A stretch of DNA of 64,000 nt from a virus, in the IMG/VR virus record IMGVR_UViG_3300011113_000491, positions 1-64,000 of that record. The stretch is one strand, 5' to 3'. Below, piece after piece: positions 2,841 to 59,271 of this stretch. How positions within the stretch are numbered: position 1 is the first letter of the stretch; the number at the start of each line of letters is the position of its first letter. The position numbers and the translations under genes are program-made. The notes beneath the pieces were generated by a model, which saw only the letters and a list, made by a program, of their open reading frames with translations, did no database searches and was not told the origin of the DNA.

Positions 2841-5054
<2,214 letters not shown>

Positions 5055-5058
<4 letters not shown>

Positions 5059-8174: not shown

Positions 8175-11100
8175 TTACGTCAACTTAATTCTTCTCATAA
8201 ATCTAACATTCCATCGCTTACTACCATATGCAGGAACTGGTATTACTCTACCAAAGTTTGTACCATCAATAGTATCGAAATATATGCTATTTATTAGTTC
8301 ATTACTAAATGCCGTTGATGTTAAGAATACTGAATTTTCTATATCATCTCTATGCATCTTATTTATGTAAGTAAAATAATTAGTAGAATCATCATATATT
8401 TTAGAAGCAAAGAATTTCATTTCTTCCACAGATGGAATATAAAAATCCATAAATCCAAATTTATTTTTGTATTTTACTTTTTCATACAAACGTGAAGAAT
8501 CTGTTTGGATATTGTATGTGTTATAGAAACCATCGTGTAATGAATTTATACTTAATTTCTTATCATCTTCTGTATCCAAATCAAAATATCTTACTTTATT
8601 TGATGTTTCAGAAACTATTAAAACCCATCCCTTATCAAAATCTTTGCTACCTTTTGTAGAAATTTTTGATTTCTTAAAACCTACAGAGTTCAACTCAATT
8701 GGATCTGAACCATATACTAAACTTTGATTTGGTTTATAAACTCCTATGAAATATCCACCCATGAAACGATCACCAAAGGACAGATTAAATGATTTAAATT
8801 TTTGTTCTGTCATTGTTTGAGGAACTAATATGTTATTAGAATCTAAAACTGGATTTGATGGAGCATATTCGCTATCGCACATTCTGTTATCTGAATCATA
8901 TAGAGTTACAAAATGACCATTTCTTTGTTCACATATTCCCTTTAATGTTGGATAGCATTTATAATCGTAACCAGAGTCTGTTTCTATTAATTCAAAACAA
9001 GTTCCAACATTTTCTACTCTCTTCTTGCGCGTGGCAAATCCTATATTACCACCTAGAAGCATCATTGCACTTTCAACTCCGCAATCATGAGGACTTGAAT
9101 TTTGCAATAAAGATTTATTACATAGTGCTCCACTAGTATAAACAGTTTGGTATTTAACTAAAGACGGATCATATGCTAAACCATCACTAGTGTTAACTAT
9201 GTAAATTTGATTTGATACGGCCGTTGACTTAAGTTCACAGTCTCTCTGGGTACACACGTTAGTACATGTAATTCCTAGAGGAATGTTAGATTCGTCATAT
9301 TCCATATAGCAACATGCTCTTGGAATTCTTTTATCAACAAAACATTCTTTTGATGAAGAACCAAGTATTCTCAAACTACTTCCTACTATTTCTCTATTTG
9401 CAACACTTTCATGAATACAATCACCTATATTGGAACAAGATCTATTTGAATAAACAGGAGAACCATCATCATACCACACGCACTGAGGAATTTCTAAAGA
9501 GGTGTCACAATAACTTCCATATGCAGTGTTTGCATTACATACTCCCTTATATGAGGTGTCATTAATTTGTGAAGAACAAACTTGAGCTCCATTTTCATCT
9601 GTTCTATAACAACAATCACGAACTACGCCATCTATGCACCCGCAACAATAATTACAAGATCCCTCTAAATCTGATGCAAATCCAGTTGGACACGTTATAG
9701 TACTACAATTTTGTAAAGGATATGGGGTTCCTCCTGCATATATGCATTCATATGCAATTAAAGAATCTTGACATACTCCACCAATACAACAAGCTCCTTG
9801 ACCACAATTTGTTGTTTGTGGATATGACAAACCAAACGCTTCTTGACAGGTAACACATAATCCTAAATTTGAAGTACCACCTGCTGCTCCACCCTGACAA
9901 CTCCCCTCACCTGGTGCATTTACTGACCAATATTCATAAATTGGAGCTCCATTACAAGTTCCTATTTGTTTTCTCCAATTTGTACCAGATCCTCCAAAAT
10001 CTTCTGCATCTGGAGGTATTCCCAAATCATCAAGAGTTGGTGTTGAACTAGGTACATCCACACACAATAATGTACTAGTTGATGTTGGATTTCCTGAAGT
10101 GCCAGGACACGTTTCTCTAACATTCAATATACATGCAAAATAAGTAGCTTGATAACATGGCTGATCATCACACGATTTTCCTCCATTAAAAATTGCCGTA
10201 GGATCTATATCACATATGCTTTTTGTTGTCATTTGACAAGATCCATCTTCTTTGCAACATGCGCCAAAATTTGCATTGCAATTTACGGATGTACATAAGG
10301 TTCCACACCCATTCCAATATCTGTATGCGAGTGAATCAGTTACACAATCACTTTGTTTTACATTGTTGGTACAAGTAGCTACAGCCGGAATACTAGTTCT
10401 TGAAATACTACAACATGCTCCCAATGCTCCAGGACACGGTGAATTAGTACAATTGTTTGGGGATGTAGTAGATGTTATATTTCCATAGTATCTAAATATT
10501 TTATTTCCACATACACCAGTACCTGTGCAATTAGACTGTAAAACATTATCAGTACAAGTTCCATTTGCATCTCCTTGACAACAAGATCCTGAACAATTGT
10601 TACAAGTTGTAACTTCTTGACCGTTATTTGCAGTACATTCTGACTTCTTCTTTGTAGAACAAGATTGTGTTGTAGGATCACAACACAGAACATTAGGATC
10701 ACAAGTTACTTGACTACAAGTTTTTCCTACATTAAAGGTTCCTGTACAATTTCCTGGCAACACATAAGAACATCCGCCAGTAGATAGACAACATGCTCCT
10801 GCTGCACCTTCACATGCATCTGCTACACCATCCGCATCGAGATCGGTGCATTTTGAACCATAACCTTGAAAAGTTCCTGAACACGAGTTCTTTTGTATTA
10901 CAGTACATGTTGTTGTACTACAACATGCACCACGACAAGGATATGCTGCTTGACCTGTTGTGGGACATGCAGCGGCTGAGGTAAGATAAATTCCACCCCA
11001 AAAATTTGTGCCATTATCACATGTTCCATTCGCACAACAATCTTGTTTATTTTCATAAACACAACCAGTGGGTTTACAGCATCTTCCAGAACAAGTTGAT

Positions 11101-14100
11101 TCAGTACAAGTAGTATTATCATTATATGAGTTATTGGAGCCAGCTGCAGCGGCTGAACAATTTTGTGAAGCAGATTTTCCGTCCGATGTATTGTATACTT
11201 GTAGACAATTTTGTTGTGCTTGAATGCAGCAAGCACCCTTACAAACTCCAACTCCATTAACTATGCATGGAACTAAATTTCCTGAATATCGCCCAGAGCA
11301 GGTTTGATTGTATGCAACTTGAGTGCATGCTCCTGTCGAGCTACAACACGCACCTTTGCAATTATTTGCACATGTACCAAGACTCCAAACACCGTTTGGA
11401 ATTTGAGAACACGCCGAGGCCGTAATATTATCGGTACAACTTCCAGCACCCGACGATCCGGAAACACAACATGATCCTGTTGGTTCTGGACATCCAGCAG
11501 AAGTACAAGTAGTAAATCCTTGTTTAAATCTAGACAAGGGACATGTATTTCCTAAGTCTTGTTTTACTACAAAATTATCAGAACAACCAAGTTGATTACC
11601 ATTATTGCATACAGTAGGAGTAGAACAGCAACAATACCCTCCTTTGCAATATGGAACTCCATCTGGATTTGTACATGGAGTGTTGTAATGGAAAACATCG
11701 CCTGGTAACAGTGCCCCTCTTTGTTTTTGAGAACAATTTCCAGAGTTACATGCGGCACCGAGATCACATGGAGAATCTACTCCAGACTGACCGCAAACTT
11801 GATTGTAGAAGAATGTTCCGTCAGTACAATCTATTCTTCTAACTCTTTCGCAGGTTCCATCAAATTTACAACATGCACCCCAATCACATTTTGAATTTGC
11901 CTCGGCCGGAGAATAGTACTGTTCTAAATATGCTGCTCCTTTACACTCTGATAATTCATCAGTAGTTCCTACTCCTGGATTATTAAATTCAGTATTAGTA
12001 CAACATAATCCTATTCCACATCTATCGGGATAAACATTACCAGATATAGTAATACTACAATCAGAAACATTTGGTATTGTTCTTTTTCCAGAAATTTCTG
12101 CACAACTTGCATTGGAAGTTATACCTCTACAAATTAAATCATTAGGAGATGGCGTTGTATCATCTAATGCACAGCACAATCTATTTACACACGGTTGAGC
12201 TCCAGATTGGGTGTAAATATTATTATTTGATGCGTTCCATACAAACTCTAGAGTTTGACATGTGGCATCTTTTTTCCATATAGAACTTTGAATTACCTCT
12301 CCACTATATTGTGTATTTACATACCCATCACACTGTGCTTTGGTTATATTGCTTAAACAGAATGGTCCGCTTGAAATACCAGATCTTAAGTCGTTTACTG
12401 GATCTGTAGTATTATATAAACAACATCTACCTCTTTCTTCTTCCCCGCAAGGATGTGGGTTATCACTGCATCGATTTTCTGGGTATGATCTCCAAGTTCC
12501 AGCATCACACTCTTGTTCTAATTTTAAATCTCCGGGTAGGCAATCTCCTCCAGATCCAGTGCAAGGACACTGACCAAGAGCAGCACAGCAGAATCCTTTT
12601 TTACATTGATTTGGTAAGCACTCTGCTTGACCATCTCCTATATTTTCATACCATTTAGAATTGGGTTGTAAAGAACATTGATATTGTGTCAAAATACCAT
12701 AACACTCTTCACTTTGATCATTACAACAAAGTCGTTTTGGGAAGTCGTCTGGGCAATATTGCTCAGATATATCTGGTTCACAATCATAATTGCAAACACA
12801 ATCTGGATTTCTAAATCCGTTACAACCACACGATCCTACTTGTCTAACCTCATTCCATCCCTGTTGAATTGTAGTTTTCCACGATATATTATCATCTTCA
12901 TAAATGTTTCCGGGCAATTGACAACATCTATTTTGCGAGGCCGTGGGCGTGGCCGTGGGAGTTTTAACATATACGGTTCCTACATTTTTGACTAAATTAT
13001 AGTTGAATGGTAAATTTGCATCATCATTGAACGTAAAAAGATCTCTATATCTAATGTCTGTTTGACTGCTCGCCGTGGATGGATTTGCTACTTTACAGCT
13101 TTGACAGTATGATATTTTTGTATTTTTAGGAAGAGTTCCTGGATTTGTATTTAATTCTATTCCGGGATATAGGTAAGAATTATTCGCCACTTCAGCACAA
13201 ATATCACAATCATATTTTTGTAATCTTAATTGGCTTGTAGATGTACCACTATCAGCATTATAAACTAGAATATCTTTACATTCAAAATTAGATTTTATAA
13301 ATCTAGCATAAAGTCCGCTCCCCGAAGTATAGGTTCCATCTTTATTTTGACAATATTTTTTAGTAACCTTTGATCCATTACATGAAGAATTGCATGTTTG
13401 TGGACCATCTGGTGATAAACAGTTTAATCCGTTAAATGTGCAGCATACCCCATATCCTGCTTTTTCCTCACTTACATTAGTTGCTGAAGAATAGTACGGA
13501 TTACCTCCGGCCCAGGAGGCGAGCGCAGCGCCGGCGCACCCACCTTCTGGGTAGAAAAACAGTAAAACATCACCATCGTCTGGATTATAATATTGAGAAG
13601 ATCCAGAATTTACAGTATAAGTTCCATCAGTGGTGTTCCAATCCAAGAACACTAAATTACATCCACTTCCATCTCCTTTACATGATACTGCTTGAGAGCA
13701 TATACACTCGTTTGCAGCTGCCCCTGACAAAGTTGAACATGGAGTTCCATCTGGTTTAGTAGTCGTTGCTTTATCGAATGTTTGCCATAATGTATCGCAA
13801 TTTGGATCTATTACATCAAAATTACAATTCGGACATTCATTTGAAGGCTGACCAGAACTATCCTTCGCAACTTGTAAAAATGGTCCAACACATTCATCTA
13901 ATGGAATATTATTTTGACAACTGTTGGTAAAATGATCACAACATGCATACAATGGTTCACATATATTTGGATTTGTTCCTGATCCTTCATCTGTACATGG
14001 AAGAGTATTAAATGTTCGATTGCATGTAGTATATTCATTATCTGGTATGTTTGTATAGGTATCAGTAGATAAATCATAATCATAAAGACCAGTGTTCTTT

Positions 14101-16061
14101 TGATATACTGTGGTGCATGTGGAATTTCTACAACAAGAACCTTCAACATATGGATCTTGTGGCTGACAATTTACAGAAGAACAATTCGTTGCATTGGGTA
14201 AGAAAGTATCATTTCCACAGAACGCTTGATTTACTTGAGCTCCATTGTCTCCATAGCATTGTCCTACTGTTGTATCACAACACAATCCCAACAATTCAGG
14301 TTCACTTCCATCACATCCTATTCCACTATAAATTGGATTTGTTTGTGCAGAACCTTCACATGTGATATCAAATGGACCATACCATCTCTTACAGCATCTA
14401 TTTCCTGCTTCATTTTGAATTGCACAATTAGTACATCCAGTTGGACATTCTTGTTGCTCATATACTGCATAAGTCATTTGAAGACACTGACAAGTTCCAG
14501 CGTCATTAATCTCAGAATCAGTACCACAAGGAGATATACATGCATTTCCTATAAAATTACAAACATTATCACACGCTTCGCATGTTGCATTAACTTGTGA
14601 ATTGCCACAATACTTATTATTAAAATAATTGCTAACTTTATTAAGTTGATCTTGTAATGTATCGTTTTCTAAATTAGGTATAGCAGTTCTTGATAATTTT
14701 TCAACAACTTCGTCCCATCGTCTAAAAGTACAATCAGGACAACAATAACTTTCGTCCACAACAAATCTACAATCTTTGAAACTTGGACTACAGCACACAC
14801 CAAATGGAACTTCTGTGTATGGACATGATGTACTAGTAGAATCACTTGGTTTTATTACATATTTTTTAAATGCAGTATTTTGAGTAGTAGTAGTACAATT
14901 AATCGAATCACTAGGAACATCTGTGCATGTAAAAGTACCAGAACCATCTGTATAAGATGTTATTGATAAAGTTATGCTTGTGCTGTCTTGTTGTATTTCA
15001 AAAATACATCCTTCACCTTGACACAAAGAAGAATCAGCAGCACATGTTTTATTTGCAAAAACTGGTCCTGCCTGCGTTACATCTCCGTCGTAATTTGCTT
15101 GATATTGAGAAATACCATATCGTGTTCCAGTGCAATTTTGTTGTGTGGTTACACTGAAATTTCCTTGGTCATTGCATATTACAGGAAATCCTACAATGGC
15201 AGCAGCTGCACAGTTTCCATATAATTTAAATGTTTCTCCAGTTCTACACAACTGTGAACCTATAGTTTGCTCTGTATCATTTGGATTTAACCCATCCGTA
15301 TATACGCTGTAACAAGCACCAGTAGAATCTGTACATGTACCATAAACATCCGAATTAACACAAGTTACACAATTTCCTCCTTCTTGCCAAGTAGAATCTG
15401 GATCTAATTGTGTGCATTGAGATTGAGTTAAATCTGTTCTACAACAAGTACAGTCACCACTTTCATTGCAATTATAGCAACATCTACCAATTGGATCTTC
15501 TGGTTCATTACATTCTGGTAAAGTAGGATTATCTTTGCAAGGATCTGGTTCTTCTGTTACATTTGTAGTGTCTAATCCATAACAATAATTTCTTATTGTT
15601 TGTGAGTCTCCAGTTGTAGGACACGATCCCTGTGTCCAAATTCCACCAATTCTAGAACACTCACATTGTTCTACATTATCTTTTAACCCTACATTGAAAT
15701 ATAGAGGTATTGTTGTGTCCGATGATGTTTTTTCGCATCTATCTCCAGAATCAATTGGTGTTAAATTTTGATCGTTTATGAAATCTTGATAATTTTGACT
15801 TTCCTGAGCATACTTACATGCACAGCAACACCCTCTTTCGGTTGCCTGTTCACATGTAAAATTATCAATATCTGCTCCGGGGTAAAAAGTTCTAGTTACA
15901 ACGCTCAAAATCCCTTGATTTGAATAGCATTCATTCGCGGTAGTTTCGTATTTAGAATATTCTTGGGTGTTTGAATTATATTGGCAGCAAACACCCATTG
16001 ATTTTAATTCATCTTTAAAGTCAATTGCGGATTGTAGTCTAGATCTAAATTGTATTGTCAT
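8175..16061 (-). CDS. Giant Cys-rich GACC-repeat fibre/adhesin with C-terminal DUF1566-like domain
   Basis: 2628-aa ORF; many G(A/S/R/L/V)CC...C...C...C units; C-terminus FGDRFMGGYFIGVY...WVLIVS...DGFYNT...DFYIPSVEEM...FLTST...VRFMRRI. Confidence 0.8.
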   Translation of the reverse strand: MTIQFRSRLQSAIDFKDELKSMGVCCQYNSNTQEYSKYETTANECYSNQGILSVVTRTFYPGADIDNFTCEQATERGCCCACKYAQESQNYQDFINDQNLTPIDSGDRCEKTSSDTTIPLYFNVGLKDNVEQCECSRIGGIWTQGSCPTTGDSQTIRNYCYGLDTTNVTEEPDPCKDNPTLPECNEPEDPIGRCCYNCNESGDCTCCRTDLTQSQCTQLDPDSTWQEGGNCVTCVNSDVYGTCTDSTGACYSVYTDGLNPNDTEQTIGSQLCRTGETFKLYGNCAAAAIVGFPVICNDQGNFSVTTQQNCTGTRYGISQYQANYDGDVTQAGPVFANKTCAADSSLCQGEGCIFEIQQDSTSITLSITSYTDGSGTFTCTDVPSDSINCTTTTQNTAFKKYVIKPSDSTSTSCPYTEVPFGVCCSPSFKDCRFVVDESYCCPDCTFRRWDEVVEKLSRTAIPNLENDTLQDQLNKVSNYFNNKYCGNSQVNATCEACDNVCNFIGNACISPCGTDSEINDAGTCQCLQMTYAVYEQQECPTGCTNCAIQNEAGNRCCKRWYGPFDITCEGSAQTNPIYSGIGCDGSEPELLGLCCDTTVGQCYGDNGAQVNQAFCGNDTFLPNATNCSSVNCQPQDPYVEGSCCRNSTCTTVYQKNTGLYDYDLSTDTYTNIPDNEYTTCNRTFNTLPCTDEGSGTNPNICEPLYACCDHFTNSCQNNIPLDECVGPFLQVAKDSSGQPSNECPNCNFDVIDPNCDTLWQTFDKATTTKPDGTPCSTLSGAAANECICSQAVSCKGDGSGCNLVFLDWNTTDGTYTVNSGSSQYYNPDDGDVLLFFYPEGGCAGAALASWAGGNPYYSSATNVSEEKAGYGVCCTFNGLNCLSPDGPQTCNSSCNGSKVTKKYCQNKDGTYTSGSGLYARFIKSNFECKDILVYNADSGTSTSQLRLQKYDCDICAEVANNSYLYPGIELNTNPGTLPKNTKISYCQSCKVANPSTASSQTDIRYRDLFTFNDDANLPFNYNLVKNVGTVYVKTPTATPTASQNRCCQLPGNIYEDDNISWKTTIQQGWNEVRQVGSCGCNGFRNPDCVCNYDCEPDISEQYCPDDFPKRLCCNDQSEECYGILTQYQCSLQPNSKWYENIGDGQAECLPNQCKKGFCCAALGQCPCTGSGGDCLPGDLKLEQECDAGTWRSYPENRCSDNPHPCGEEERGRCCLYNTTDPVNDLRSGISSGPFCLSNITKAQCDGYVNTQYSGEVIQSSIWKKDATCQTLEFVWNASNNNIYTQSGAQPCVNRLCCALDDTTPSPNDLICRGITSNASCAEISGKRTIPNVSDCSITISGNVYPDRCGIGLCCTNTEFNNPGVGTTDELSECKGAAYLEQYYSPAEANSKCDWGACCKFDGTCERVRRIDCTDGTFFYNQVCGQSGVDSPCDLGAACNSGNCSQKQRGALLPGDVFHYNTPCTNPDGVPYCKGGYCCCSTPTVCNNGNQLGCSDNFVVKQDLGNTCPLSRFKQGFTTCTSAGCPEPTGSCCVSGSSGAGSCTDNITASACSQIPNGVWSLGTCANNCKGACCSSTGACTQVAYNQTCSGRYSGNLVPCIVNGVGVCKGACCIQAQQNCLQVYNTSDGKSASQNCSAAAAGSNNSYNDNTTCTESTCSGRCCKPTGCVYENKQDCCANGTCDNGTNFWGGIYLTSAAACPTTGQAAYPCRGACCSTTTCTVIQKNSCSGTFQGYGSKCTDLDADGVADACEGAAGACCLSTGGCSYVLPGNCTGTFNVGKTCSQVTCDPNVLCCDPTTQSCSTKKKSECTANNGQEVTTCNNCSGSCCQGDANGTCTDNVLQSNCTGTGVCGNKIFRYYGNITSTTSPNNCTNSPCPGALGACCSISRTSIPAVATCTNNVKQSDCVTDSLAYRYWNGCGTLCTSVNCNANFGACCKEDGSCQMTTKSICDIDPTAIFNGGKSCDDQPCYQATYFACILNVRETCPGTSGNPTSTSTLLCVDVPSSTPTLDDLGIPPDAEDFGGSGTNWRKQIGTCNGAPIYEYWSVNAPGEGSCQGGAAGGTSNLGLCVTCQEAFGLSYPQTTNCGQGACCIGGVCQDSLIAYECIYAGGTPYPLQNCSTITCPTGFASDLEGSCNYCCGCIDGVVRDCCYRTDENGAQVCSSQINDTSYKGVCNANTAYGSYCDTSLEIPQCVWYDDGSPVYSNRSCSNIGDCIHESVANREIVGSSLRILGSSSKECFVDKRIPRACCYMEYDESNIPLGITCTNVCTQRDCELKSTAVSNQIYIVNTSDGLAYDPSLVKYQTVYTSGALCNKSLLQNSSPHDCGVESAMMLLGGNIGFATRKKRVENVGTCFELIETDSGYDYKCYPTLKGICEQRNGHFVTLYDSDNRMCDSEYAPSNPVLDSNNILVPQTMTEQKFKSFNLSFGDRFMGGYFIGVYKPNQSLVYGSDPIELNSVGFKKSKISTKGSKDFDKGWVLIVSETSNKVRYFDLDTEDDKKLSINSLHDGFYNTYNIQTDSSRLYEKVKYKNKFGFMDFYIPSVEEMKFFASKIYDDSTNYFTYINKMHRDDIENSVFLTSTAFSNELINSIYFDTIDGTNFGRVIPVPAYGSKRWNVRFMRRIKLT

Positions 16062-16099
16062 AATGTCCTCATGCTATTTATAATAAAAAATATGATTAA

Positions 16100-19000
16100 T
16101 TATGCATTGGATTTTATGGGTTTTGGTTTTGCATTTACACCTAAAAGTTCACAATCACAGTTTTCATTAGTACCACAATTATAACAATTTTTCCAAATGC
16201 CGTTTTTGTTTCTACATTCACCACAAGTATATTTGCTGCAAGTATATTTTCCTGAACTATTCTTAATGCAGCAACATCCTGGAACTTTCATATCTTTAGT
16301 ACATGCAGAACAATCTGTACTGGAAGAACAATCTTGACCTCTACTCCATTTTATACCTGCTTTTACCTTCATGCATGTATTTTCATCGGTTACATCACAT
16401 GCTATACAATTTGAATAACCAGTAACTGTGTCATATTTTCTATAACAGCATCTTCCTAACTCTTCGTTACTTGAAACGTATGAATTTATTTCTCCATTTG
16501 GTCCGGTGCAATCTTCTAATTTATTTACTGAGTATGAATTTAAATCATCATTTATAATTGGAACACAATCTGAAACAAACATTCCGGTGTCTGTTTTTAT
16601 TGTAATCTTTTTATAAACTATATTATGATTTAATTTTAAAGTATCTACCACATTTGCTGCACCGCGTGAACTGCTACCAATTGGCGAACTTCTAGGTGGT
16701 AAGAAATATACACCAGGAGGTGCAGGATTCAATGGATCTTGATCTGACTGATTTGTTCTTTTATCACTCCAGCAATCTCCGCCGTCCCAGTTGTATTTTG
16801 GACAGTTCCATGCTGGCGTACAAGCACCACCACCTAGCTCGCCCGGCAAAGGATTACACACACCTAAGCAATTTAAAACTTCCCCATAAATACACACGCA
16901 ATCAGGAGCAGGTTGTTGTGGCGCATTGGGTCCACAACATTGACCAAATCCATAGTTAAATTGTTCACAATTAAAATTACCACAGCTAGAACCAGTCTTA
17001 GCATTTTTTATACTTCCATTCAAACAAGGAAATGGTGGCTGACCGTAACCAAAATCGGCGGGATCTCCATCTGTATTCTTCCAACAGTCATAAGAATCCT
17101 CTTCCCTTACACATAAACCATCACAATCCCTGATGAATCCCTGGCTAGGACAACCCTCTGGACTGGTTCTAACACAAGTATCACATTTTTCTGGAACAGA
17201 TGCATTTTCAAATCTAGGTGGCAAAACAGATGGACACAAACATGTTGGAGCAGTCGGACAATCACCAGCCTTAAAATTAACAGGAACAAAAGGTTCCTTT
17301 GTAGATGGTATCCAAGGTGCCCCTGGTGTTTTAGGATTTGTTCTATATCCTCCATCATTTTCTCTATCTGCTGGAATTCTCCAATCTTGTTGTTTACCTG
17401 TAGTTGGATTAATATAGTTAGGATCAGAAATCCATATAGACATACATCTGGTATTGCAGTTATTTGCAAAGTAAACAAGTCTATTAAAACACTCTGGTTT
17501 ACAGGAGTCTGAACAAGGCGGTTGCGAGTACTTTCCAGATGCAAGGGCTTTACCTTGAGGAGAAGTCGGAGGAGCACATGGTGCTATTTTTTCTATAGCT
17601 TGTCTATCTAAAACTAATTTATAAGGTGGATCCACCACATCTCCGTCTACCCAATTTCCAGATTTGTCTTTACATTTGCAACTAGCATTTCTACAACATT
17701 CGCTTCCAGAACTACAATCAGATAAAGAACAAATTCTTATTACAACTGGAGGACAACCATTACAGGGACAAGTAGCAGCATAATCCTCTTCGTTGCTTAA
17801 ATTAGGATTTGTACTTGGACTGAATAATTCATAACCCCCAGTGCACTTTTCCAAACAACATGCCTTGGGATCAAATTTACAGAAGTCTCCTCCTCCTCCG
17901 CTTCCGCCTCCTCCGCCTCCTCCGCCTCCTCCTCCTGACGGTGGTCCAGAAGGTGGTCCAGAAGGTGGTCCAGAGGGTGGTCCAGAAGGTGGTCCAGAGG
18001 GTGGTCCAGAAGGTGGTCCTGGCGGCCCCGGAGGTGGCCCCGGAGGTCCTGGCGGCCGCGGCGGCGGCCCAGGTGGCCGCGGTGGCGGCGGTGGTGGACA
18101 ATCATCATCCGGATCGCATGGTGGTGGCGGCCCCGGAGGTGGCCCCGGAGGTGGCCCCGGAGGTGGCCCCGGAGGTGGCCCCGGAGGTGGCCCCGGAGGT
18201 GGCCCCGGAGGTGGTCCTGGTGGTGGCCCGGGAGGTGGTCCTGGTGGTGGTGGTTGACAGTCTTCTCCTGGCGGACAGTCAGGACTACCAACACAGTTGC
18301 AATTCACATCATCACATGTGGTATCTTCGCCCATGAAAACACCACCTAAAGTTTCACACGAAACTGTTACATCATCTGAAAGATTTCCAAAAAGATATGG
18401 TGGATAAATTCCTTTACAGACACCATTAACGCAACATGCACCAGGTTTGACATTTGCGTTACAACAAACTTCTTGTGGAGAGATTATTGTATCTACAACT
18501 GCTCCTGATGCATCTTTATATTCTCTATTTCTTGCTTTACTGGGTAAAGCAACACCTTTTAGAATTTCCTCGCACTGTATTCTAGTAGTTCCTGAAATAT
18601 AAACTCCATTAACACAGCAAATAGTATATGGAGAAACTTGATCTGTTTCATCATCAATTATAACAGGACCTTCTATATTTTCATCTAATGATTTGTTCAA
18701 TGCACCTTTATAACGATTACATGGATCAGTGCAAAATCTTCCAGTTTCTCTTGGTTGTGCCCAATTTGCTCCGTCTGGATTGTTTGGATATGTTTGACAT
18801 GTTATCCCCGGAAAGAAAACTCCACCAAAGTAAAAACATTCATCTACTGTTGAATTTTCTAAACATTTACCAGCAGAACAACAAGCACCAATCTGGTTAC
18901 ATGTTTCGTTACAAGATAGATGGGGATTGAATTGACCAGATAATTTTGTACAAAACTCTCTAGAAACATAATCCACACATCTAGGTAAACTTTGATCTAG

Positions 19001-20089
19001 ATTTACACCTGAATTTGGAACAAGGTTACCGAGATTTTCATACGGAACACCATTTGGATATAGTTCTTTAATTCTATCAAAATCTAGAGTATTTGCAAAA
19101 TTATACGTCACATAGTTTGTATTAATTTGTATTCCTGTGTTAGTTTGTTCAAAACAACAAGATCCAAGTAATGATGTGACCTGACACTGGTTTGGATCAT
19201 TTAAATCTAATCCTCGCGCAGTTACTCTGGCTAACCAACTTTCTCCTGCATCATATGAAAACAAATTAACTACAGATTTGCCACATGTTAAATAATTTTC
19301 ATTACCTTCAAAATATACATTAGAGGGAAATTTCCAAACATCATCGGATGTAAATATAAAAGTTACAGATATTATTTGATTATTTTTAAAATCTCCAGTT
19401 ATTTCTGAAATACCAATAGGAGTTTTTAGTACATATACTCCACCAGCATCTACATTTATCTGTATACCTCCGGTTGTTCCTACACTGAATCCTTCTAATT
19501 CTCCATTAAGTCCTACTAGTTGATTTCTTTCTACAGGACCAATATATTTAATTTTTGCCTTTTCGCTCAAATAAGTATTACTAAAATTAAGCAATCCAGA
19601 GTAAGAAGAATCTGTTGCAACTTTAGTGCTACTTCCTACTCCCGGTTCTGAAATATACATTATGGTATCGTTGTATACCGTTCCTAAAGTACCAACACCC
19701 TCTTCGTATGTTGAATATAATGTTATATTATTAGAATCTTGTTTAACTTCTAAAGAACCAGTTGCAGTTAATCCTCTAAAGAACAATTCACCATTTACTA
19801 ACTCTTTAAAGAATTCTTGTCCAGTTCCAACATTTTTTGCAGATGTTACATTTTCCTGAACCGAATTACCTTTGAAGTTTCCTGTCACTCTTCTGGTACT
19901 TCCGTCAGTTAATGTAAAGGTTATTCCAGTTCCATCTGAAACGGCAGAAACAACATAAACTCCTCGCTCACCAGTTGCACCAGTTGAACCACTGATACCA
20001 GTGTTTCCTGTGTTTCCAGTTGCACCAGTTGGTCCGGTTGGACCTGTTATACCTGCTATTATAATTTGTGTGATTGAACTACTACCCAT
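16100..20089 (-). CDS. Collagen-like, Cys-rich GACC-repeat fibre protein with poly-Pro stalk
   Basis: 1329 aa; N-terminal GSSSI plus GXT repeats; GSCC/GACC units; (GPPP)n(GPPS)n tract; LNR-like WNCPKYNWDGGDC. Confidence 0.8.
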   Translation of the reverse strand: MGSSSITQIIIAGITGPTGPTGATGNTGNTGISGSTGATGERGVYVVSAVSDGTGITFTLTDGSTRRVTGNFKGNSVQENVTSAKNVGTGQEFFKELVNGELFFRGLTATGSLEVKQDSNNITLYSTYEEGVGTLGTVYNDTIMYISEPGVGSSTKVATDSSYSGLLNFSNTYLSEKAKIKYIGPVERNQLVGLNGELEGFSVGTTGGIQINVDAGGVYVLKTPIGISEITGDFKNNQIISVTFIFTSDDVWKFPSNVYFEGNENYLTCGKSVVNLFSYDAGESWLARVTARGLDLNDPNQCQVTSLLGSCCFEQTNTGIQINTNYVTYNFANTLDFDRIKELYPNGVPYENLGNLVPNSGVNLDQSLPRCVDYVSREFCTKLSGQFNPHLSCNETCNQIGACCSAGKCLENSTVDECFYFGGVFFPGITCQTYPNNPDGANWAQPRETGRFCTDPCNRYKGALNKSLDENIEGPVIIDDETDQVSPYTICCVNGVYISGTTRIQCEEILKGVALPSKARNREYKDASGAVVDTIISPQEVCCNANVKPGACCVNGVCKGIYPPYLFGNLSDDVTVSCETLGGVFMGEDTTCDDVNCNCVGSPDCPPGEDCQPPPPGPPPGPPPGPPPGPPPGPPPGPPPGPPPGPPPGPPPGPPPPCDPDDDCPPPPPPRPPGPPPRPPGPPGPPPGPPGPPSGPPSGPPSGPPSGPPSGPPSGPPSGGGGGGGGGGGSGGGGDFCKFDPKACCLEKCTGGYELFSPSTNPNLSNEEDYAATCPCNGCPPVVIRICSLSDCSSGSECCRNASCKCKDKSGNWVDGDVVDPPYKLVLDRQAIEKIAPCAPPTSPQGKALASGKYSQPPCSDSCKPECFNRLVYFANNCNTRCMSIWISDPNYINPTTGKQQDWRIPADRENDGGYRTNPKTPGAPWIPSTKEPFVPVNFKAGDCPTAPTCLCPSVLPPRFENASVPEKCDTCVRTSPEGCPSQGFIRDCDGLCVREEDSYDCWKNTDGDPADFGYGQPPFPCLNGSIKNAKTGSSCGNFNCEQFNYGFGQCCGPNAPQQPAPDCVCIYGEVLNCLGVCNPLPGELGGGACTPAWNCPKYNWDGGDCWSDKRTNQSDQDPLNPAPPGVYFLPPRSSPIGSSSRGAANVVDTLKLNHNIVYKKITIKTDTGMFVSDCVPIINDDLNSYSVNKLEDCTGPNGEINSYVSSNEELGRCCYRKYDTVTGYSNCIACDVTDENTCMKVKAGIKWSRGQDCSSSTDCSACTKDMKVPGCCCIKNSSGKYTCSKYTCGECRNKNGIWKNCYNCGTNENCDCELLGVNAKPKPIKSNA
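17890..18253 (-). repeat. GC-rich 12-bp tandem repeats encoding (GPPP)n, (GPPS)n and poly-Gly
   Basis: Plus-strand units ggccccggaggt and ggtggtccagaa repeated in tandem. Confidence 0.95.
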
Positions 20090-20091
20090 AA

Positions 20092-23000
20092 TTAATTTCC
20101 ATTAAAACCAAGACAAGACTTACATTTATCAAATTCGTAATCATTGTATATCGTATCTGTATTTATATCCCAAGAGTTGTATACCAATGGTATTCTTCTA
20201 ACTGGTCTAAATCTTGCCGCTTTTGAGTCTCTTCTCACAGTATATTGTTTTCCTGCTGCGCCAGAACTAAAATCTTGAATCGTCATCCCTACTCCATTAC
20301 AAATTTGTAAGGATAAATCTAGTGCTTCATCTTCTGTGAGTCCCATTTGATCCTTGTAATATCTACTTCTTTCATTTATTAATTCTTGTGAATCCTCTGG
20401 GTTTCTGTTTGGTTCTATTTTTTGAACAACATATAAATCTTTTTCTTTATGATTATTTGTATTCCAATCTACGATTCTACAGACAGAAGTTGAAGTCCAA
20501 TAAGGATTTGTTGATATTACTTGACCTCCAGTTCCCTCTATTGAACTATTAATTTTTTCCAAATTTCTAGCAATATGATTCATTTCTACTATACTTGGAA
20601 TGTACCAATCACTATATCCTAAATAATTTTGTTCATTTAATGACGATACTTTTCTTATTACGGTTCCCTCTGGGTTTCTATTTTCCCACATCTGACTGTA
20701 ATAATACTTAAACGTATTGATGTCTGTTTCTATTTCATTTTTATTTGCACCACCAGGCCATTGATTTATATTTTGTGAGACAAATCTTCTATAAGCATTG
20801 ATGTCTTTTCCGTCTCCATCGTCATCTCTAAACCAATACTCTGGGTTATTTTTTGATGTCGCATCGTGTAGTCTTGTATTCATTAAACCATCTATAGAAG
20901 AAGTTGATATTGGTTCTAAGAAATACTTACCATTAAAGTTTTCGCTTCCTGGCTCGACTCTAGACTCAAACATTTCAGACCACTTAAACATATATTCTGA
21001 ACTAGATCCTATTTCATAATATGCATCTTCTGGTGCAACAATTAACGCCCATAGAACTTGAACTCTGTTTTGTTCATAAAATTTACTATAAAGATATTTT
21101 GCTAATACCGCGCCAGGAGTCGGCGCTCCCATGATTTCTGTTACTATATTAGATCTGGTAGTATCAAATGCGTATGGACCATATTCTTTATTAAATTCGT
21201 CAGTAAAAGAGAAAAATGCAGGATCTGGCCATGTTATGGTTCTAATCGTTCCATTTAAATTTGCAGTAATTGATGTATAAAGTTGTTGTATTACAGGAAC
21301 ACCAACTTTGAACAAGCATTTTGCTCCAAAAGATACATCAGTTATTTGTAGAGGATATGTTCTAGAAATATAAACTAAAGAACCTGATGTATTTGGCACA
21401 CCATATTCATCCGATGTATATTTTTTACATCTTTTGAATTTCCATAATTTAAAATCTGCTCCTTGCTGATCTCCTCTGGGTCTACACATACAATCAACTG
21501 GTTCTCCATATGCAGTTGCTGGCTCCTGAAAAGTATCACAATTGTTTGGATTACCTATTATTGCTACTAAATGTCCACCCTGTATTTTTTTACCGGGAGT
21601 AAAACATGGATCATTGAAATTTGCTCTACACAAATTAGATTCTAAAGAATCTCCAAAGTATGGATTATTAAAACTAATACCACAACAAGAAACTTCAAAA
21701 CACTTTTTACCAATACCCATGAATGTTCCTTGATTTCTTGCACAAGTTTCTGGTAATTGTTCATCTACACAATATGTCCCGTCTTGTTGTGTATAATAAC
21801 AACATGGTCCAGAAAGAGCCCTAATTTCCCCCAACCCAACAGCAGCAGTACAACAATTTTCGTTTCCCCATTCAGCACAAGACAAACGAGCAGAAAACTC
21901 AGCATCTGGTATCAGGTTACATTCCACATCAGTAAGATCTAAACATTTTCCTTTTACACAACATGAACCATAACTAGGACATGCTCGTTCTTTTCCAACA
22001 CAAGAAAAAACTTCTTCTCCTGCAACTATACTATTACCACATCTTTGATTTGGATAAAACACTCCATTATATTTTAAACACAAATCATATGTTGTATTTC
22101 TACATAGATTGTTTAAATTTGAACTAGTAAAAAATGTATTCAGTGAGTTTATATTTCCAAGACAGCAAGCACCTTCAGGAAAACAATCACCATTGCCCAC
22201 TCTTGCTAAACATGAACTATTAGAAAATTGACCACCTATTGCAATACAATAACTCTTATGCATATAGTCTATACATTTTCTGTCTTCTGGATTTTCACTT
22301 GAACATAAACAACAAGATCCTATATCTAATGAATCAACAGTGGTTGCTAAATTGGTTGATGTTATTCCTGCCTCCGCAGCGTCTAACATTTGATCATTAG
22401 AAATTTTATTCCACGTTAATTGTGGAAATGTGTAATTTAGAGAGACAGCACCAGTTACTCCAAAATATAAACGATCTTGTATTTTTATATCTGTTTGATA
22501 TTCTGTTTGTGATCCTGCTAAATTTGTATATGTTCTTGGAGTATACTGTAAGATATAATTTCCTGAAACTGTAGTTGTATTTATTTTTGTTTGATATGAT
22601 CCAGTTCCTCCTGTAGCACTTAAAATATTAGAAGTAAATGGGGCAGTTACAAAAGAATTAAATACATAATTGAAATTATTAGGATTGAGCCAACTTCTTT
22701 GAGCATTTATTGGAGCAATTATAATTTTTGTAGAGGGATCGTAATAGGTTTCTCTCGCACCTCTACCCTTTCCAGATTCGTATTGATAAATTATTTCTCC
22801 AACATTTCCAATTGGTCTAAATTCTGTTACTTCATCAAAAACCTTTCCAACAATTGAAACATAATTTGAATTAGTAGTAACAGAATCAAATGCAGCAGTA
22901 TTGCTAACAAAGTTAATTTTCTTAAATTTTATAACTTCATCACTATCTGTTATCAATACTTGATTTGCATTACGTTCTCCAGAATTATCACTATATAAAA

Positions 23001-23313
23001 TACTAAAGGTATCATCTGTTGTTTGTTGACCTTTTAATAAAACTATAGTATTGGATTCTGGATCAAATGCTCCATCTGAACCAGTAAATCCTAAATTGAA
23101 AGTAGTTCCATCGGTTAGTGTAAATCTGGCAACACCATTAGATACAAAGGTTATTGTGGATATGCTAGTTCCTGTGTTTCCTTTGTTGCCAGGAGCACTA
23201 TTTCCTGTAGCACCAGTGGAACCAGTAGATCCAGTGGGACCGGTATTTCCAGTCATACCTCCAGTTGATCCAATTATATCTTTGATTATTATTCTTGAAC
23301 TACCGATAATCAT
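20092..23313 (-). CDS. Collagen-like, GACC-repeat fibre protein with C-terminal DUF1566-like domain
   Basis: 1073 aa; GSSRI plus GXT repeats; GSCC/GACC/GPCC; PGKKIQGGH...WALIVAP...DGLMNT...DWYIPSIVEM...YWTSTS...FRPVRRI. Confidence 0.8.
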   Translation of the reverse strand: MIIGSSRIIIKDIIGSTGGMTGNTGPTGSTGSTGATGNSAPGNKGNTGTSISTITFVSNGVARFTLTDGTTFNLGFTGSDGAFDPESNTIVLLKGQQTTDDTFSILYSDNSGERNANQVLITDSDEVIKFKKINFVSNTAAFDSVTTNSNYVSIVGKVFDEVTEFRPIGNVGEIIYQYESGKGRGARETYYDPSTKIIIAPINAQRSWLNPNNFNYVFNSFVTAPFTSNILSATGGTGSYQTKINTTTVSGNYILQYTPRTYTNLAGSQTEYQTDIKIQDRLYFGVTGAVSLNYTFPQLTWNKISNDQMLDAAEAGITSTNLATTVDSLDIGSCCLCSSENPEDRKCIDYMHKSYCIAIGGQFSNSSCLARVGNGDCFPEGACCLGNINSLNTFFTSSNLNNLCRNTTYDLCLKYNGVFYPNQRCGNSIVAGEEVFSCVGKERACPSYGSCCVKGKCLDLTDVECNLIPDAEFSARLSCAEWGNENCCTAAVGLGEIRALSGPCCYYTQQDGTYCVDEQLPETCARNQGTFMGIGKKCFEVSCCGISFNNPYFGDSLESNLCRANFNDPCFTPGKKIQGGHLVAIIGNPNNCDTFQEPATAYGEPVDCMCRPRGDQQGADFKLWKFKRCKKYTSDEYGVPNTSGSLVYISRTYPLQITDVSFGAKCLFKVGVPVIQQLYTSITANLNGTIRTITWPDPAFFSFTDEFNKEYGPYAFDTTRSNIVTEIMGAPTPGAVLAKYLYSKFYEQNRVQVLWALIVAPEDAYYEIGSSSEYMFKWSEMFESRVEPGSENFNGKYFLEPISTSSIDGLMNTRLHDATSKNNPEYWFRDDDGDGKDINAYRRFVSQNINQWPGGANKNEIETDINTFKYYYSQMWENRNPEGTVIRKVSSLNEQNYLGYSDWYIPSIVEMNHIARNLEKINSSIEGTGGQVISTNPYWTSTSVCRIVDWNTNNHKEKDLYVVQKIEPNRNPEDSQELINERSRYYKDQMGLTEDEALDLSLQICNGVGMTIQDFSSGAAGKQYTVRRDSKAARFRPVRRIPLVYNSWDINTDTIYNDYEFDKCKSCLGFNGN

Positions 23314-26108
23314 TAGTTAACCATCTTTCTTTCTATCTTTAACAACCTCCAATATTTATTTAAATTATCAATAGAAGAATAATATCTTCCATCGCATCTT
23401 ATCATTTTAATTGGTCTTATTTTGTAATTATTTTCTGTTCTCTTTTTCTTTCCGGTTTCAAAATTTTCATTAATAATATTATTATCAAAATTAATAGTCC
23501 ACGCAGAAGTACCGTGTGTAAGACCGGAGGGATGATTTAAAACATATTCGTTTGTACCGTCTGTGAATGTTCCGGTAGAAGACCAGTGCCAACCTTCCAA
23601 CATGGTTCCACCATTTGAAAGTATTACTGTGTTTAAATTATTTGTATCATCTTCAGAACACCGAGAGGCAATGAAAGCCAATTCATCATAACTTGGCAAA
23701 TACCAATCAGAAATAAAATCGTTTGTTTCAGGAAATGCTTCATTGAAAGCAGAAATTGCTCTAGCAACAGTGATATTTTCGCTACTCAAAACTGGAGTAT
23801 AAGAACCAGAATTTAATCCAGTAGCACCAATGTCGTAGTAATGAACAAATTCAGAATTTATAAGTCTCGCAGTATTGAGGAGTCCATAATTTCTAGACCA
23901 TTTTCCGTTAAACGAAGTATTTGGTTTATTTGTTATCCACTCTTCTGGATCATTTGTTGAACGAATTAAGTTGCAACTAGCAAATGAGTATATTGATAAA
24001 TTATCTTTTGAACTTGGTAAACTGTAGTTATACAAATAACCTTCAAACAGTCCCATATCCGAAAAATCAGGATCTTCTATTTTAGTTGTTCCTACTTTGA
24101 ACAAAGGACCCCAACAATTAGATCCATTACTCCAAACAAAATCAGTAGTGTCAGTTGAAGATCCACTATATTCTACAGCCTCACCATTTTCATTTATTGT
24201 TAGTGGATGCTTAGAGATAATCATTATATAAGAATCACCAGAAGTGTTACATAAATCTCCACTTGTAGTAAATCCATATCCACTAAAATCATATCTTGAA
24301 GAATAATATTCGCAAGAAGTAACTCCTCCTAAAGTTGTACTAGCAGTAAACCCATAAGGAGTTCCAAATAGTTCGGAACCAAAGCATTGCGATCCATCAG
24401 GATTAAATATACCCACAACATAACCGTCTGCATATTCGTCACCAACTGATAATGTCTTATTGGGTATAATTGAAAAACATGGAATTGAAGCAGAAGAACA
24501 TGTAACTACATCGCAAGTTGAAGAATCTCCAAAATATGTTTTATTATTTTCAAAGCATTCTTCTCCATTTATATTATTTGTACAGGTTACACCTGAATCA
24601 CAGCAGGCACCATAACCAGAAAAGCAAACATTAAAATTTTTACTATTAGAACAATTTACTCCTGCACCCTGCCAATAACCAGAACAATTTTCTTGTTCGG
24701 TTTCTATGCACACCCCAGATCCATCACAACATGCACCTACATTTATTTTTGCATTTTCGCAACTAAAATCTTCACATGTTTGTTTTAGTCCAGTAAATTT
24801 ATTCCAATAAAAACTATAATTGCTTTCCTCTGCGCTCTTTGCACAGTCACAATATTTTAATTCATCACACGAAACAAAAGATTGCTCCTTGAAGAAACAA
24901 CAAGCACCCAATGCATCACAATAGGTTAATCCTTCAGAATATGTAACTCCCGCAATGAAATGTCCGGGACAAGATATATTTGTAGAAAGTGTATATCCAC
25001 ACTCTGAATCACAACACAAACCAAAAGTAATTCCATTTATTGTACTAGACAGTAAAGTAAATGAACTATTATTACAATTGTATAAATTTGGATTATTTTT
25101 GATAGGCGATCCTGCCGCGGGTGTTTGTTGACTATAGGAATTTAAATAACCATACCAAACATTTCCTATAGAAAAGAATGAAAATAAATCGTATCTTCCA
25201 CTAAAGCAAGGGGAATAACCTAATGGCCACACCACAGGATTTAAACTTGATATTGGAATAGAACCTACCGCAGCGTTGCTAGATGTATAAAAGAATCTAA
25301 GAGGTTTTTGATATGTTTTCATCGGTGGAGAAATCACACTTATTGATTGAGAGTAGAGTGGATTCTCTGGACTTTTTATTATTATCCAAGATTCTTTGTC
25401 TAAGGAAGGTAACTGATTACCTAAGTAAAAATTAGCAAATCCATCGTTAGGATCCAATAACCACGCCTTTACACTATTATTCACTATTGCGGTGGCATTA
25501 CTTACTGTAAGTTTTTCATATACATCACTATTTACTTGATATACTGTTCTTTGATCTGCATCATATGAAGTACCAGTATAACCAGTTTGAAAATCTCCTA
25601 CATTATTTTTAACTAGAGCTCCAACAGGACCTCCAGTTAGTCCTAGAGCAGAAACATCAACCAAATCGTATGTAACGGTTATCGTTTCTCCATCATCACT
25701 AATTGTTATTTCTGGACTTCCAGAAGTTAAATTTCTAAAATTTAAAACATCTGCACTGTAACCTATATTGTCATATGCAGTTACAGATACTTCTTCCTGA
25801 TTAAATTTTATAAAATTTGCTACACTATTATCTAAAGAAGTACCTTCAGCGTGTAAATGAAATGTTCCGGTTGGACCTATTATTGAATTTGATGATCTCT
25901 GGGAACCATCATTGAATGTAAAAATAACAATATTATCTTGTTTGACTACGTTGGATATACTAGGTCCAGTATTACCTGTTGCACCGAATCCTGTATTTCC
26001 TGTAGGGCCAACATTACCCGTATTTCCTCTAGGACCAGTAGGACCAGTATATCCTACTAATCTTTCAATTACGGTTTTTCTTATCGAGCTACTACCATAT
26101 ATTGGCAT
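23313..26108 (-). CDS. Collagen-like, GACC-repeat fibre protein with C-terminal DUF1566-like domain
   Basis: 931 aa; GSSSI plus GXT repeats; GLCC and three GACC; VGDEYADGYVVGIF...YGLLNT...DWYLPSYDEL...WHWSST...IRPIKMI. Confidence 0.8.
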   Translation of the reverse strand: MPIYGSSSIRKTVIERLVGYTGPTGPRGNTGNVGPTGNTGFGATGNTGPSISNVVKQDNIVIFTFNDGSQRSSNSIIGPTGTFHLHAEGTSLDNSVANFIKFNQEEVSVTAYDNIGYSADVLNFRNLTSGSPEITISDDGETITVTYDLVDVSALGLTGGPVGALVKNNVGDFQTGYTGTSYDADQRTVYQVNSDVYEKLTVSNATAIVNNSVKAWLLDPNDGFANFYLGNQLPSLDKESWIIIKSPENPLYSQSISVISPPMKTYQKPLRFFYTSSNAAVGSIPISSLNPVVWPLGYSPCFSGRYDLFSFFSIGNVWYGYLNSYSQQTPAAGSPIKNNPNLYNCNNSSFTLLSSTINGITFGLCCDSECGYTLSTNISCPGHFIAGVTYSEGLTYCDALGACCFFKEQSFVSCDELKYCDCAKSAEESNYSFYWNKFTGLKQTCEDFSCENAKINVGACCDGSGVCIETEQENCSGYWQGAGVNCSNSKNFNVCFSGYGACCDSGVTCTNNINGEECFENNKTYFGDSSTCDVVTCSSASIPCFSIIPNKTLSVGDEYADGYVVGIFNPDGSQCFGSELFGTPYGFTASTTLGGVTSCEYYSSRYDFSGYGFTTSGDLCNTSGDSYIMIISKHPLTINENGEAVEYSGSSTDTTDFVWSNGSNCWGPLFKVGTTKIEDPDFSDMGLFEGYLYNYSLPSSKDNLSIYSFASCNLIRSTNDPEEWITNKPNTSFNGKWSRNYGLLNTARLINSEFVHYYDIGATGLNSGSYTPVLSSENITVARAISAFNEAFPETNDFISDWYLPSYDELAFIASRCSEDDTNNLNTVILSNGGTMLEGWHWSSTGTFTDGTNEYVLNHPSGLTHGTSAWTINFDNNIINENFETGKKKRTENNYKIRPIKMIRCDGRYYSSIDNLNKYWRLLKIERKMVN

Positions 26109-27603: not shown

Positions 27604-27614
27604 TTAATTCTCCG

Positions 27615-29954: not shown

Positions 29955-29964
29955 GGTTTAATCT

Positions 29965-37745: not shown

Positions 37746-37750
37746 GGCTT

Positions 37751-37758
37751 TATTTATA
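37751..37758 (-). promoter_or_regulatory. Late promoter TATAAATA for gp25
   Basis: Exact consensus, 5 nt upstream of ATG. Confidence 0.75.
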
Positions 37759-37759
37759 G

Positions 37760-53552: not shown

Positions 53553-53627
53553 CACGGGTGACAGGAATCGAACCTGCATCATCCAGTTACGGTAAATCTG
53601 TTTAGAAGACAGAGCCGATACACCCGT
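53553..53627 (-). tRNA. Atypical tRNA-Arg(UCU) lacking a D arm
   Basis: ACGGGTG/CACCCGT acceptor stem; TCTGT-CTTCTAA-ACAGA anticodon arm; GCAGG-TTCGATT-CCTGT T arm. Confidence 0.75.
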
Positions 53628-54681: not shown

Positions 54682-54698
54682 AAAAACATCCTTTATAA

Positions 54699-59196: not shown

Positions 59197-59271
<75 letters not shown>

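Follow-up and report, generated by a model that had tools for sequence, protein, structure and literature searches.

What structure is built from four large cysteine-rich proteins that are encoded side by side in the structural gene block of an uncultured phage? The question is raised by the IMG/VR record IMGVR_UViG_3300011113_000491 (123,465 bp, completeness about 55%), of which the first 64 kb were analyzed and are called the window here. The four tandem genes lie on the minus strand and encode P0001 (8175–16061; 2628 amino acids, 251 Cys, 9.55%), P0002 (16100–20089; 1329 amino acids, 91 Cys, 6.85%), P0003 (20092–23313; 1073 amino acids, 39 Cys, 3.63%) and P0004 (23313–26108; 931 amino acids, 34 Cys, 3.65%). 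The mean Cys content of the remaining 31 open reading frames (ORFs) of at least 150 amino acids in the window is 1.12%. A preliminary description of the window had placed four tandem genes of 931, 1073, 1329 and 2628 codons between baseplate and neck genes and had put Cys at roughly a tenth of the largest protein. The ORFs, their neighbors in PHROG profile searches and the count of 251 Cys in 2628 residues agree with this.

Baseplate wedge genes are located upstream of the cassette, and genes for the head-tail adaptor, head closure, sheath stabilizer, terminase, sheath, tail tube and portal follow downstream (PHROG). The gene order of this structural block is of the T4 type. By gene context, the four genes are fiber-type structural genes in the host-recognition position, as had been suggested. 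The best explanation, which we consider rather probable, is that they encode the host-recognition fibers of an uncultured marine T4-like myovirus and that the shafts of these fibers consist of disulfide-stabilized mini-domains.

P0004 has 35 homologs at E ≤ 1e-3 in a collection of 5.8 billion proteins, with identities from 92% down to 25%. All of them are unnamed or hypothetical, and one cluster derives from a Tara Oceans viral-fraction sample. A scan of IMG/VR with P0004 alone confirmed none of 13 candidate stretches; the alignment-based scan yielded 144 relatives, from which 79 distinct loci were retained. On every contig that extends far enough, the order orf686-orf779-orf495-P4-P3-P2-P1like-orf179-adaptor-closure recurs. 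With its synteny conserved in at least 79 related loci of uncultured phages, the cassette is not a singleton. At 67 of the 79 loci, two or more ORFs of at least 400 amino acids on the same strand contain at least 3% Cys; 31 of 231 such ORFs reach at least 8%, with a maximum of 15.8%. Searches of 50,697 GenBank phage records with P0001 and P0003 (tblastn) gave no match at E ≤ 1e-3.

The six-cysteine module in phages and bacteria

The Cys residues are restricted to the interior of the proteins, with nearly none in the first ~300 residues of P0002, P0003 and P0004 and in the last ~300 residues of P0001. The motif G[AS]CC occurs 11, 3, 3 and 3 times and the pair CC 36, 11, 6 and 4 times in P0001, P0002, P0003 and P0004, respectively. 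By cutting the proteins at every CC, 15 clear units were obtained in the window and aligned to a module profile of 39 positions with the consensus GACCxxxGxCxxxxxxxxCxxxxGxFxxxxxxCxxxxC. In the entire 123-kb record this profile matches 14 places, all within the four genes. For P0001, nine strict units are recognized locally and 12 stretches in the search of the large protein collection; each of the other proteins has two or three. A profile iterated on phage ORFs drifted, recognized fewer P0001 modules and was not used. The modules had been described earlier as G(A/S)CC-x-C-x-C-x-C. A module common to all four proteins is present, but these spacings are not literal (approximately 3–8, 8, 10–14 and 4 residues).

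Among 1.84 billion representative proteins, the profile matches 3376 at E ≤ 1e-3; of these, 1258 reach E ≤ 1e-10 and 160 reach E ≤ 1e-30. The best matches contain 10–35 matched stretches apiece. The best 150 of the 3376 matches were listed, and 149 of them are non-window proteins. These are bacterial in look and rich in Gly, Ala, Arg and Pro, and 98 of the 149 possess a signal-peptide-like N-terminus according to a crude rule. Six bacterial homologs that were inspected contain regular repeats of ~40 amino acids of the type GACCxPDGSCxxxTxxxCxxxGGxxQGxGTxCDPNPCPQP; one homolog ends in a type IX secretion system (T9SS) sorting tail, and PKD and β-helix domains are present in another. A reverse profile made from 1634 bacterial modules only matches precisely these four of the 216 window ORFs (P0004, E = 5e-11; P0001, 9e-11; P0002, 2e-8; P0003, 0.003) and none of 200 shuffles of the four proteins. 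The reciprocal matches and the empty shuffles demonstrate that the repeat is genuine and that its phage and bacterial forms are homologous.

Similar repeats had been said to occur in large secreted proteins of Phycisphaerae and other planctomycetes. This is borne out by the profile search and the genome scans, and the occurrence extends to Candidatus Eisenbacteria, in both cases for certain lineages only. One genome per species was scanned with the bacterial alignment and the pattern CDPNPCP[QP], and 422 of 490 stretches were confirmed in a list that is biased by pattern and query. The best 80 of the 422 belong to metagenome-assembled genomes of Candidatus Eisenbacteria, Phycisphaerae/Phycisphaerales, Isosphaeraceae and other Planctomycetota or are unclassified. 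The phage-derived profile matches 61, 140, 100 and 106 places in four such planctomycete or Eisenbacteria genomes. Among 41 genomes evenly sampled from the phylum of one module-bearing genome, two carry the module (E ≤ 1e-3), that genome included. Within the sampled phylum the module is patchy and confined to particular lineages.

No family in Pfam-A, NCBIfam or PHROGs covers the modules of the four window proteins, and none covers the repeat in the six bacterial homologs. A profile search of the PDB sequences returned collagen-like matches only. According to the Pfam and PHROG scans and the tblastn search, the module has no match in any described phage fiber family. No description of the module or of Cys-rich fibers of marine myoviruses was found in the literature, for which coverage was partial and excluded supplements, so that an earlier mention is possible. 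The new part appears to be the six-Cys module family itself, which is unnamed, widespread, without a solved fold and heavily used in phage fibers.

The Cys residues are the best-preserved feature of these sequences. The 28 homologs of P0004, with identities down to 25% and a mean column identity of 33%, share 17 invariant Cys and a further eight that are nearly invariant. An alignment of 63 sequences of the Cys-rich region of P0004 contains 14 invariant Cys columns and seven others with at least 90% conservation. Of the six Cys columns in the 1634 bacterial modules, five are kept in more than 99%; the sixth is aligned in 79% and is mostly lost where alignments end early. Cys is the sole conserved polar residue of the module, with no conserved His, Asp or Glu, and the loops between the Cys are highly variable. 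Judged by these alignments, the Cys are a conserved structural feature under strong constraint. Co-loss of Cys in 1634 bacterial and 410 unique phage modules gave no pairing signal, because these residues hardly vary. At the DNA level, no repeats were found among the modules of the window; the sole repeats in the cassette are the 12-nt units of a linker in P0002. Accordingly, the modules are old and diverged.

Domain architecture of the four proteins and their relatives

P0004 consists of a GSS motif with collagen-like triplets, a β domain, a Cys-rich region with four modules and a C-terminal lectin-like domain. Residues 1–50 (25959..26108; all coordinates in the cassette refer to the minus strand) comprise the conserved N-terminus, in which GSS-x-I is followed by about ten G-x-y (G-x-T/P) triplets. 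This start is shared by P0002, P0003 and P0004, but not by P0001, as had been noted for three of the proteins. Gly25, Gly28, Gly31, Gly34, Gly37, Gly42, Gly45 and Gly48 are invariant in the 28 homologs, and the triplets are interrupted once. The region is probably the trimerization and attachment part, and the ~10 triplets may be enough for a short triple helix. P0004 scores 15.3 bits with the Collagen family PF01391, under the cut-off of 27.2 bits, and four of the 28 relatives match at E < 0.01. The N-termini match tail-fiber PHROGs (E = 1e-6 to 1e-2) by the collagen-like part only.

Residues 196–344 of P0004 (25077..25523) form a β domain resembling the N-terminal domains of phage tailspikes and capsid spike domains. 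VIA-align superimposes it on 9ny6_C, a capsid spike, with Z = 6.4 and on 24qj_A, 7rfv_A and 9f4a within the range Z = 5.4–6.4. The four modules follow in residues 355–548 (24465..25046). The full-length AlphaFold2 (AF2) model has a mean predicted local distance difference test (pLDDT) of 66.6. Its collagen-like part is disordered, as expected for a monomer, and the Cys-rich and C-terminal parts reach ~80–93. Predicted separately from 63 sequences, the Cys-rich region has a pLDDT of 87.4 and a predicted template modeling score (pTM) of 0.77. Each predicted module is a short β hairpin with a turn or a short helix. Structure prediction of tandem repeats, which had been proposed earlier, thus gives a confident model, for which the PDB holds no fold match: the best Foldseek hit has E = 2.9, and VIA-align finds none of 48,161 chains at Z ≥ 5 (best Z = 3.9, a 37-residue designed mini-protein). 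These misses do not prove a new fold.

The C-terminal part of P0004 (residues 541–905, 23394..24488) has a C-type-lectin-like or Lcl_C-like fold according to VIA-align of the model and a weak match to PF07603. The best structural match is 4eps_A (Z = 11.4, 205 residues aligned, 18% identity), which ranks second in Foldseek. The C-terminal domain of Lcl (8q4e_A) aligns with Z = 8.7 and a root-mean-square deviation of 2.9 (127 of 131 residues, 19% identity). Weaker matches include TvpA, Mtd, invasin, intimin and animal C-type lectin domains. Based on the model, residues 541–905 are the probable receptor-binding tip. The P0004 model has 77 matches among the viral structures of BFVD (E ≤ 0.001); those with names among the matches listed are fiber, tail-fiber, collagen-repeat and virion structural proteins, and many are nameless. 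Similarity of the model to T4 gp34 is not significant (Foldseek E = 0.04).

P0003 is a paralog with the same N-terminus, a Cys-rich region at residues ~330–620 and an Lcl_C-like C-terminus. Its residues 884–944 (20482..20664) give the best match of the window to Lcl_C (PF07603, E = 4.9e-6). P0003 and P0004 score 27.3 and 18.7 bits, respectively, both under the cut-off of 34.9 bits, and 14 of the 28 relatives match at E < 0.01 (best 6.2e-5). P0002 combines a P0004-like N-terminus and shaft with a Cys-rich part that extends to the C-terminal end; no lectin-like domain was found in this protein. At residues ~605–735 (17887..18250) it contains a Pro/Gly linker made of (PPPG)n, (PPSG)n and poly-Gly stretches; its coding sequence is a series of 12-nt tandem repeats with 91–94% matches. 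The length of this linker likely varies between strains.

P0001 is the ortholog of proteins of ~320–850 amino acids in related phages. An alignment with 17 orthologs shows a conserved N-terminus (residues 1–110, 15732..16061; MSIQFRSR...CC...GCCCACS) that is unlike the GSS/collagen start, and BLASTP to the orthologs delimits a conserved, largely Cys-free C-terminal core (residues 2240–2628, 8178..9344). The densest run of canonical modules is found at residues 1529–2126 (9684..11477). The short orthologs match P0001 over the first ~110 and the last ~390–540 residues; therefore, the ~2000 residues between these ends represent a lineage-specific Cys-rich expansion. The C-terminus has in common with the P0004 family the motif at the start of the lectin-like domain (hhalign E = 5e-4) and, with P0003, the motif DFYIPS..EM. 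The C-terminal core is probably an Lcl_C-like domain, as far as these sequence matches indicate. An end-to-end joining of P0002 and P0001, like that of the proximal and distal half-fibers of T4, is a weak hypothesis. Complementary ends and the conserved gene order fit it, but the C-terminus of P0002 in the window does not align to the C-terminal motif conserved in its relatives.

Combining these elements, the conserved N-terminal peptide would dock the fiber to the baseplate, and the short collagen-like triple helix would trimerize the chain. The tailspike-type β domain and then the compact array of ~39-residue six-Cys modules would make up the shaft, and the C-type-lectin-like tip (Lcl_C/DUF1566 type) would, from its fold, bind a ligand on the host surface. 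P0004 and P0003 would be self-contained fibers with N-terminus, collagen part, β domain, modules and lectin-like tip. P0002 would share the N-terminal half and end in the Cys-rich part without such a tip, and P0001 would join its own N-terminus and its putative lectin-like core by the Cys-rich gain. The modules may serve as short, rigid, protease-resistant units, whose gain or loss would alter the length and reach of the fiber.

The giant member of the cassette varies by lineage. Elsewhere, the P2-like protein has up to 2431 amino acids with 10–13% Cys and the P1-like protein just 321–854 amino acids, which fits modular growth. In six loci (L072, L073, L078, L080, L081 and L084) the P4-like gene appears split or shortened, and an ORF of ~560–600 amino acids with the Cys-rich and lectin-like half is found beside a separate collagen-bearing ORF. 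This suggests domain shuffling inside the cassette. Two loci have further Cys-rich ORFs downstream of the cassette, in L048 at 17061–20705 (plus strand, 1215 amino acids, 15.8% Cys) and in L061 at 17059–20811 (plus strand, 1251 amino acids, 15.7% Cys). The module profile does not match these two ORFs, which may hold a second kind of Cys-rich repeat.

Cysteine chemistry and alternative readings of the cassette

Three internal disulfides per module are the favored arrangement, albeit by a modest preference, because the bacterial relatives look exported, the six Cys are invariant and no metal-type ligand besides Cys is conserved. The simplest route to such bonds is oxidation after lysis, when the virion would meet oxic seawater; the small distances between neighboring Cys would help. 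Alternatively, a helper might be involved. A candidate for a folding helper is orf179 (7590..8129, minus strand), a small conserved protein with six Cys, to which neither Pfam nor PHROG assigns a family. Its gene is placed between the cassette and the neck gene, both in the window and in every related locus extending that far. Its conserved block reads KQLRVLSCFG...PPCE...CGGCGCGD...YSKLDYP.L.CP..MPGF, and in the ESM Atlas it falls among clusters of hypothetical viral proteins, DUF6171 being a weak lead.

Several observations weigh against disulfide-stabilized fibers. Phage fibers assemble in the reducing cytoplasm, as is established for T4. Genes for thioredoxin, DsbA or glutaredoxin were not found in the 123-kb record, which is ~55% complete; a search for Erv1 was uninformative, as the control matched nothing. 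Three of the four proteins have an odd number of Cys (251, 91 and 39). Only about a fifth of the Cys in P0001 are inside canonical modules, since nine modules account for six Cys each, and the rest are in degenerate Cys-rich sequence. Furthermore, the Pfam matches to Lcl_C and Collagen are all under the curated cut-offs, the hhalign link between the P0001 C-terminus and the P0004 family is weak (probability 31%), and we infer the location in the virion from gene context.

More broadly, a six-Cys mini-domain with its own fold may be common to secreted proteins of Eisenbacteria and some Planctomycetota and to the fibers of a large aquatic clade of uncultured T4-like phages, with tens to hundreds of disulfides per chain. 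We put this forward only tentatively. If true, an oxidative folding route would exist in tailed-phage assembly, either after lysis or via a factor such as orf179. To our knowledge, such a route has not been described for tail fibers.

The modules could also be ligand-binding themselves and form a multivalent array that widens or changes the host range, with the lectin-like tip as one of many sites. Such a role would suit the bacterial partners of the module, which are of adhesin or enzyme type (PKD, β-helix, T9SS tail), the strongly differing number of modules among related phages and the variable loops between the Cys. However, a pure scaffold would show variable loops on a fixed Cys frame just as well, and no member has a known binding function. 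The four modules of P0004 also pack as one compact body (pTM 0.77), not as independent beads. A binding array is therefore possible but doubtful.

Metal stapling, in which Zn or Fe is bound by the Cys, would permit folding in the reducing cytoplasm as in other cytoplasmic Cys-rich mini-domains. It would reconcile the modules with the cytoplasmic assembly of fibers and with the negative searches for thioredoxin, DsbA and glutaredoxin genes in the record, and the confident AF2 fold does not tell what holds a module together. Weak structural matches include the metal-binding C-terminal domains of NikR, but with Z = 3.0–3.1 these are at chance level. The number of Cys per module is six and not four or eight, and His, Asp and Glu are not conserved. 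Moreover, the signal-peptide-like N-termini of most bacterial homologs point to export and disulfide bonding. On balance, metal stapling is a serious but less likely rival of the preferred disulfides.

An improbable assignment is that to neck whiskers, collar fibers or a capsid decoration. In T4, wac (fibritin) lies at the corresponding site of the gene order, next to gp13, and the cassette, which would replace it, directly precedes the head-tail adaptor gene; additionally, the β domain matches the capsid spike 9ny6_C. The baseplate genes, however, adjoin the cassette just as directly, the N-termini match tail-fiber PHROGs and a lectin-like tip suits receptor binding. Four large paralogs also exceed the need of a collar.

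The GC content is 60–70% in 76 bacterial module loci and 30–42% in 79 phage loci, which argues against these bacteria as hosts and against host mimicry. The proposal of the preliminary description that the fibers are built from host-like surface modules and possibly mimic host adhesins, read as a capture of modules from surface proteins of the host, is very unlikely: the 58–140 profile matches in each of the four planctomycete or Eisenbacteria genomes and the nearest ESM Atlas clusters of the module array (Planctomycetota and Uroviricota, scores below 0.9, leads only) speak for it, but in addition to the GC gap only two of the 41 sampled genomes carry the module, the bacterial CDPNPCP linker is missing from the phage modules and no DNA-level repeat or recent-transfer signal was seen in the window.

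Tail fibers determine which cells a phage infects, and the present clade, although uncultured, is widespread in the viral contigs of IMG/VR. The building block of its putative fibers, which has neither a family name nor a solved structure, recurs by the hundred in some bacterial genomes. With a defined module profile, thousands of hypothetical proteins could be annotated. Should the modules be disulfide-bonded, it is a testable question how a virion part assembled in the cytoplasm gains so many disulfides, and such modules would make compact, stable scaffolds that might be useful for protein engineering.

Genomic setting and comparison with known systems

All genes at 2–45303 are on the minus strand. 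PHROG profiles identify the portal (2–922), tail tube (944–1504), sheath (1542–2786), large terminase (2841–4607), small terminase (4567–5058), sheath stabilizer (5055–5783), head closure (5783–6727) and head-tail adaptor (6731–7534) as well as baseplate wedge subunits (32705–34450, 35605–37344, 37344–37856 and 43494–44402). Three conserved genes without an assigned family (495, 779 and 686 amino acids, 26116..32025, minus strand) precede the cassette and are also present in related phages. The large terminase subunit (TerL) has a best identity of 56%, to a cyanomyovirus TerL, and the main baseplate wedge protein is 29–34% identical to its cyanophage homologs. The gene psbA was not found in the 123-kb record, so that this cyanophage hallmark is lacking. 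The phage is uncultured and distantly related to the marine T4-like phages.

Amid the baseplate genes, an ORF of 1910 amino acids (37760–43492, minus strand) contains 53 Cys (2.8%). Its sole match is phrog_350 'tail protein' over residues 250–392, and it may correspond to the large VrlC-like or hub-associated protein that marine T4-like phages encode. Outside the structural block, a one-piece, full-length transfer-messenger RNA (tmRNA) gene is present at 54696–55062 (minus strand; Rfam RF00023, 119 bits with a cut-off of 47 bits). ARAGORN gives ANTRAFAMAA as its tag peptide, and the GC content of the region is raised (0.42–0.44 versus ~0.33). A blastn search with the tmRNA in the 50,697 phage records gave no match; the gene might help toward finding the host. 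ARAGORN and Rfam agree on a tRNA-Lys(UUU) at 59197–59269 (minus strand), and a weaker tRNA match at 53553–53627 (minus strand; Rfam, 36.9 bits) is absent from the ARAGORN output. A 39-nt unit (13 amino acids) is repeated five times in tandem at 47939–48178 (plus strand) inside an ORF of 593 amino acids (47356–49137), to which no function was assigned.

Among described systems, the host recognition cluster of cyano- and pelagimyophages comes closest. As presented in the main text of PMC7029224, this cluster holds variable fiber genes, some with collagen triple-helix repeats, and is placed between baseplate/VrlC genes and the neck gene gp14; the word 'cysteine' is absent from that main text. The module profile matches none of the four genomes HTVC008M, S-SM2, P-TIM40 and S-PM2, an empty result that is weak on its own, although the profile did match in other genomes.

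The tip of P0004 has a weak to moderate fold likeness to Mtd of Bordetella phage and to variable proteins of diversity-generating retroelements (TvpA 2y3c, Z = 6.1; TaqVP 5vf4, Z = 4.8; Mtd 1yu0, Z = 4.2). The lectin fold raised the possibility of a target of such a retroelement, which was rejected: the 123-kb record (~55% complete) contains no RVT_1 reverse transcriptase and the window no template/variable direct repeat pair. BACOVA_04982 from Bacteroides ovatus (PDB entry 4eps), the best structural match of the C-terminal half of P0004, is a bacterial fimbrial protein, and no collagen-like or Cys-rich part of it was matched. Its deposited name suggests a role in surface adhesion.

The same six-Cys module, recognized by reciprocal profile matches, is found in unnamed secreted multi-module proteins encoded in metagenome-assembled genomes of Eisenbacteria, Phycisphaerae and other Planctomycetota. 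These bacterial proteins have a regular period of ~40 amino acids, the linker CDPNPCPQP, signal-peptide-like N-termini and genes with 60–70% GC. The phage modules, in contrast, are irregular, linker-free and placed between fiber domains.

The adhesin Lcl of Legionella pneumophila (PF07603, PDB entry 8q4e) combines collagen-like repeats with a C-terminal Lcl_C-type domain, as do the phage proteins. The likeness in fold holds for the P0004 model only, with sequence scores under the Pfam cut-off. Unlike Lcl, the phage proteins lack a signal peptide (crude rule) and are encoded in a phage structural operon. Furthermore, in the phage proteins a tailspike-type β domain and the Cys-rich array separate the collagen part from the tip.

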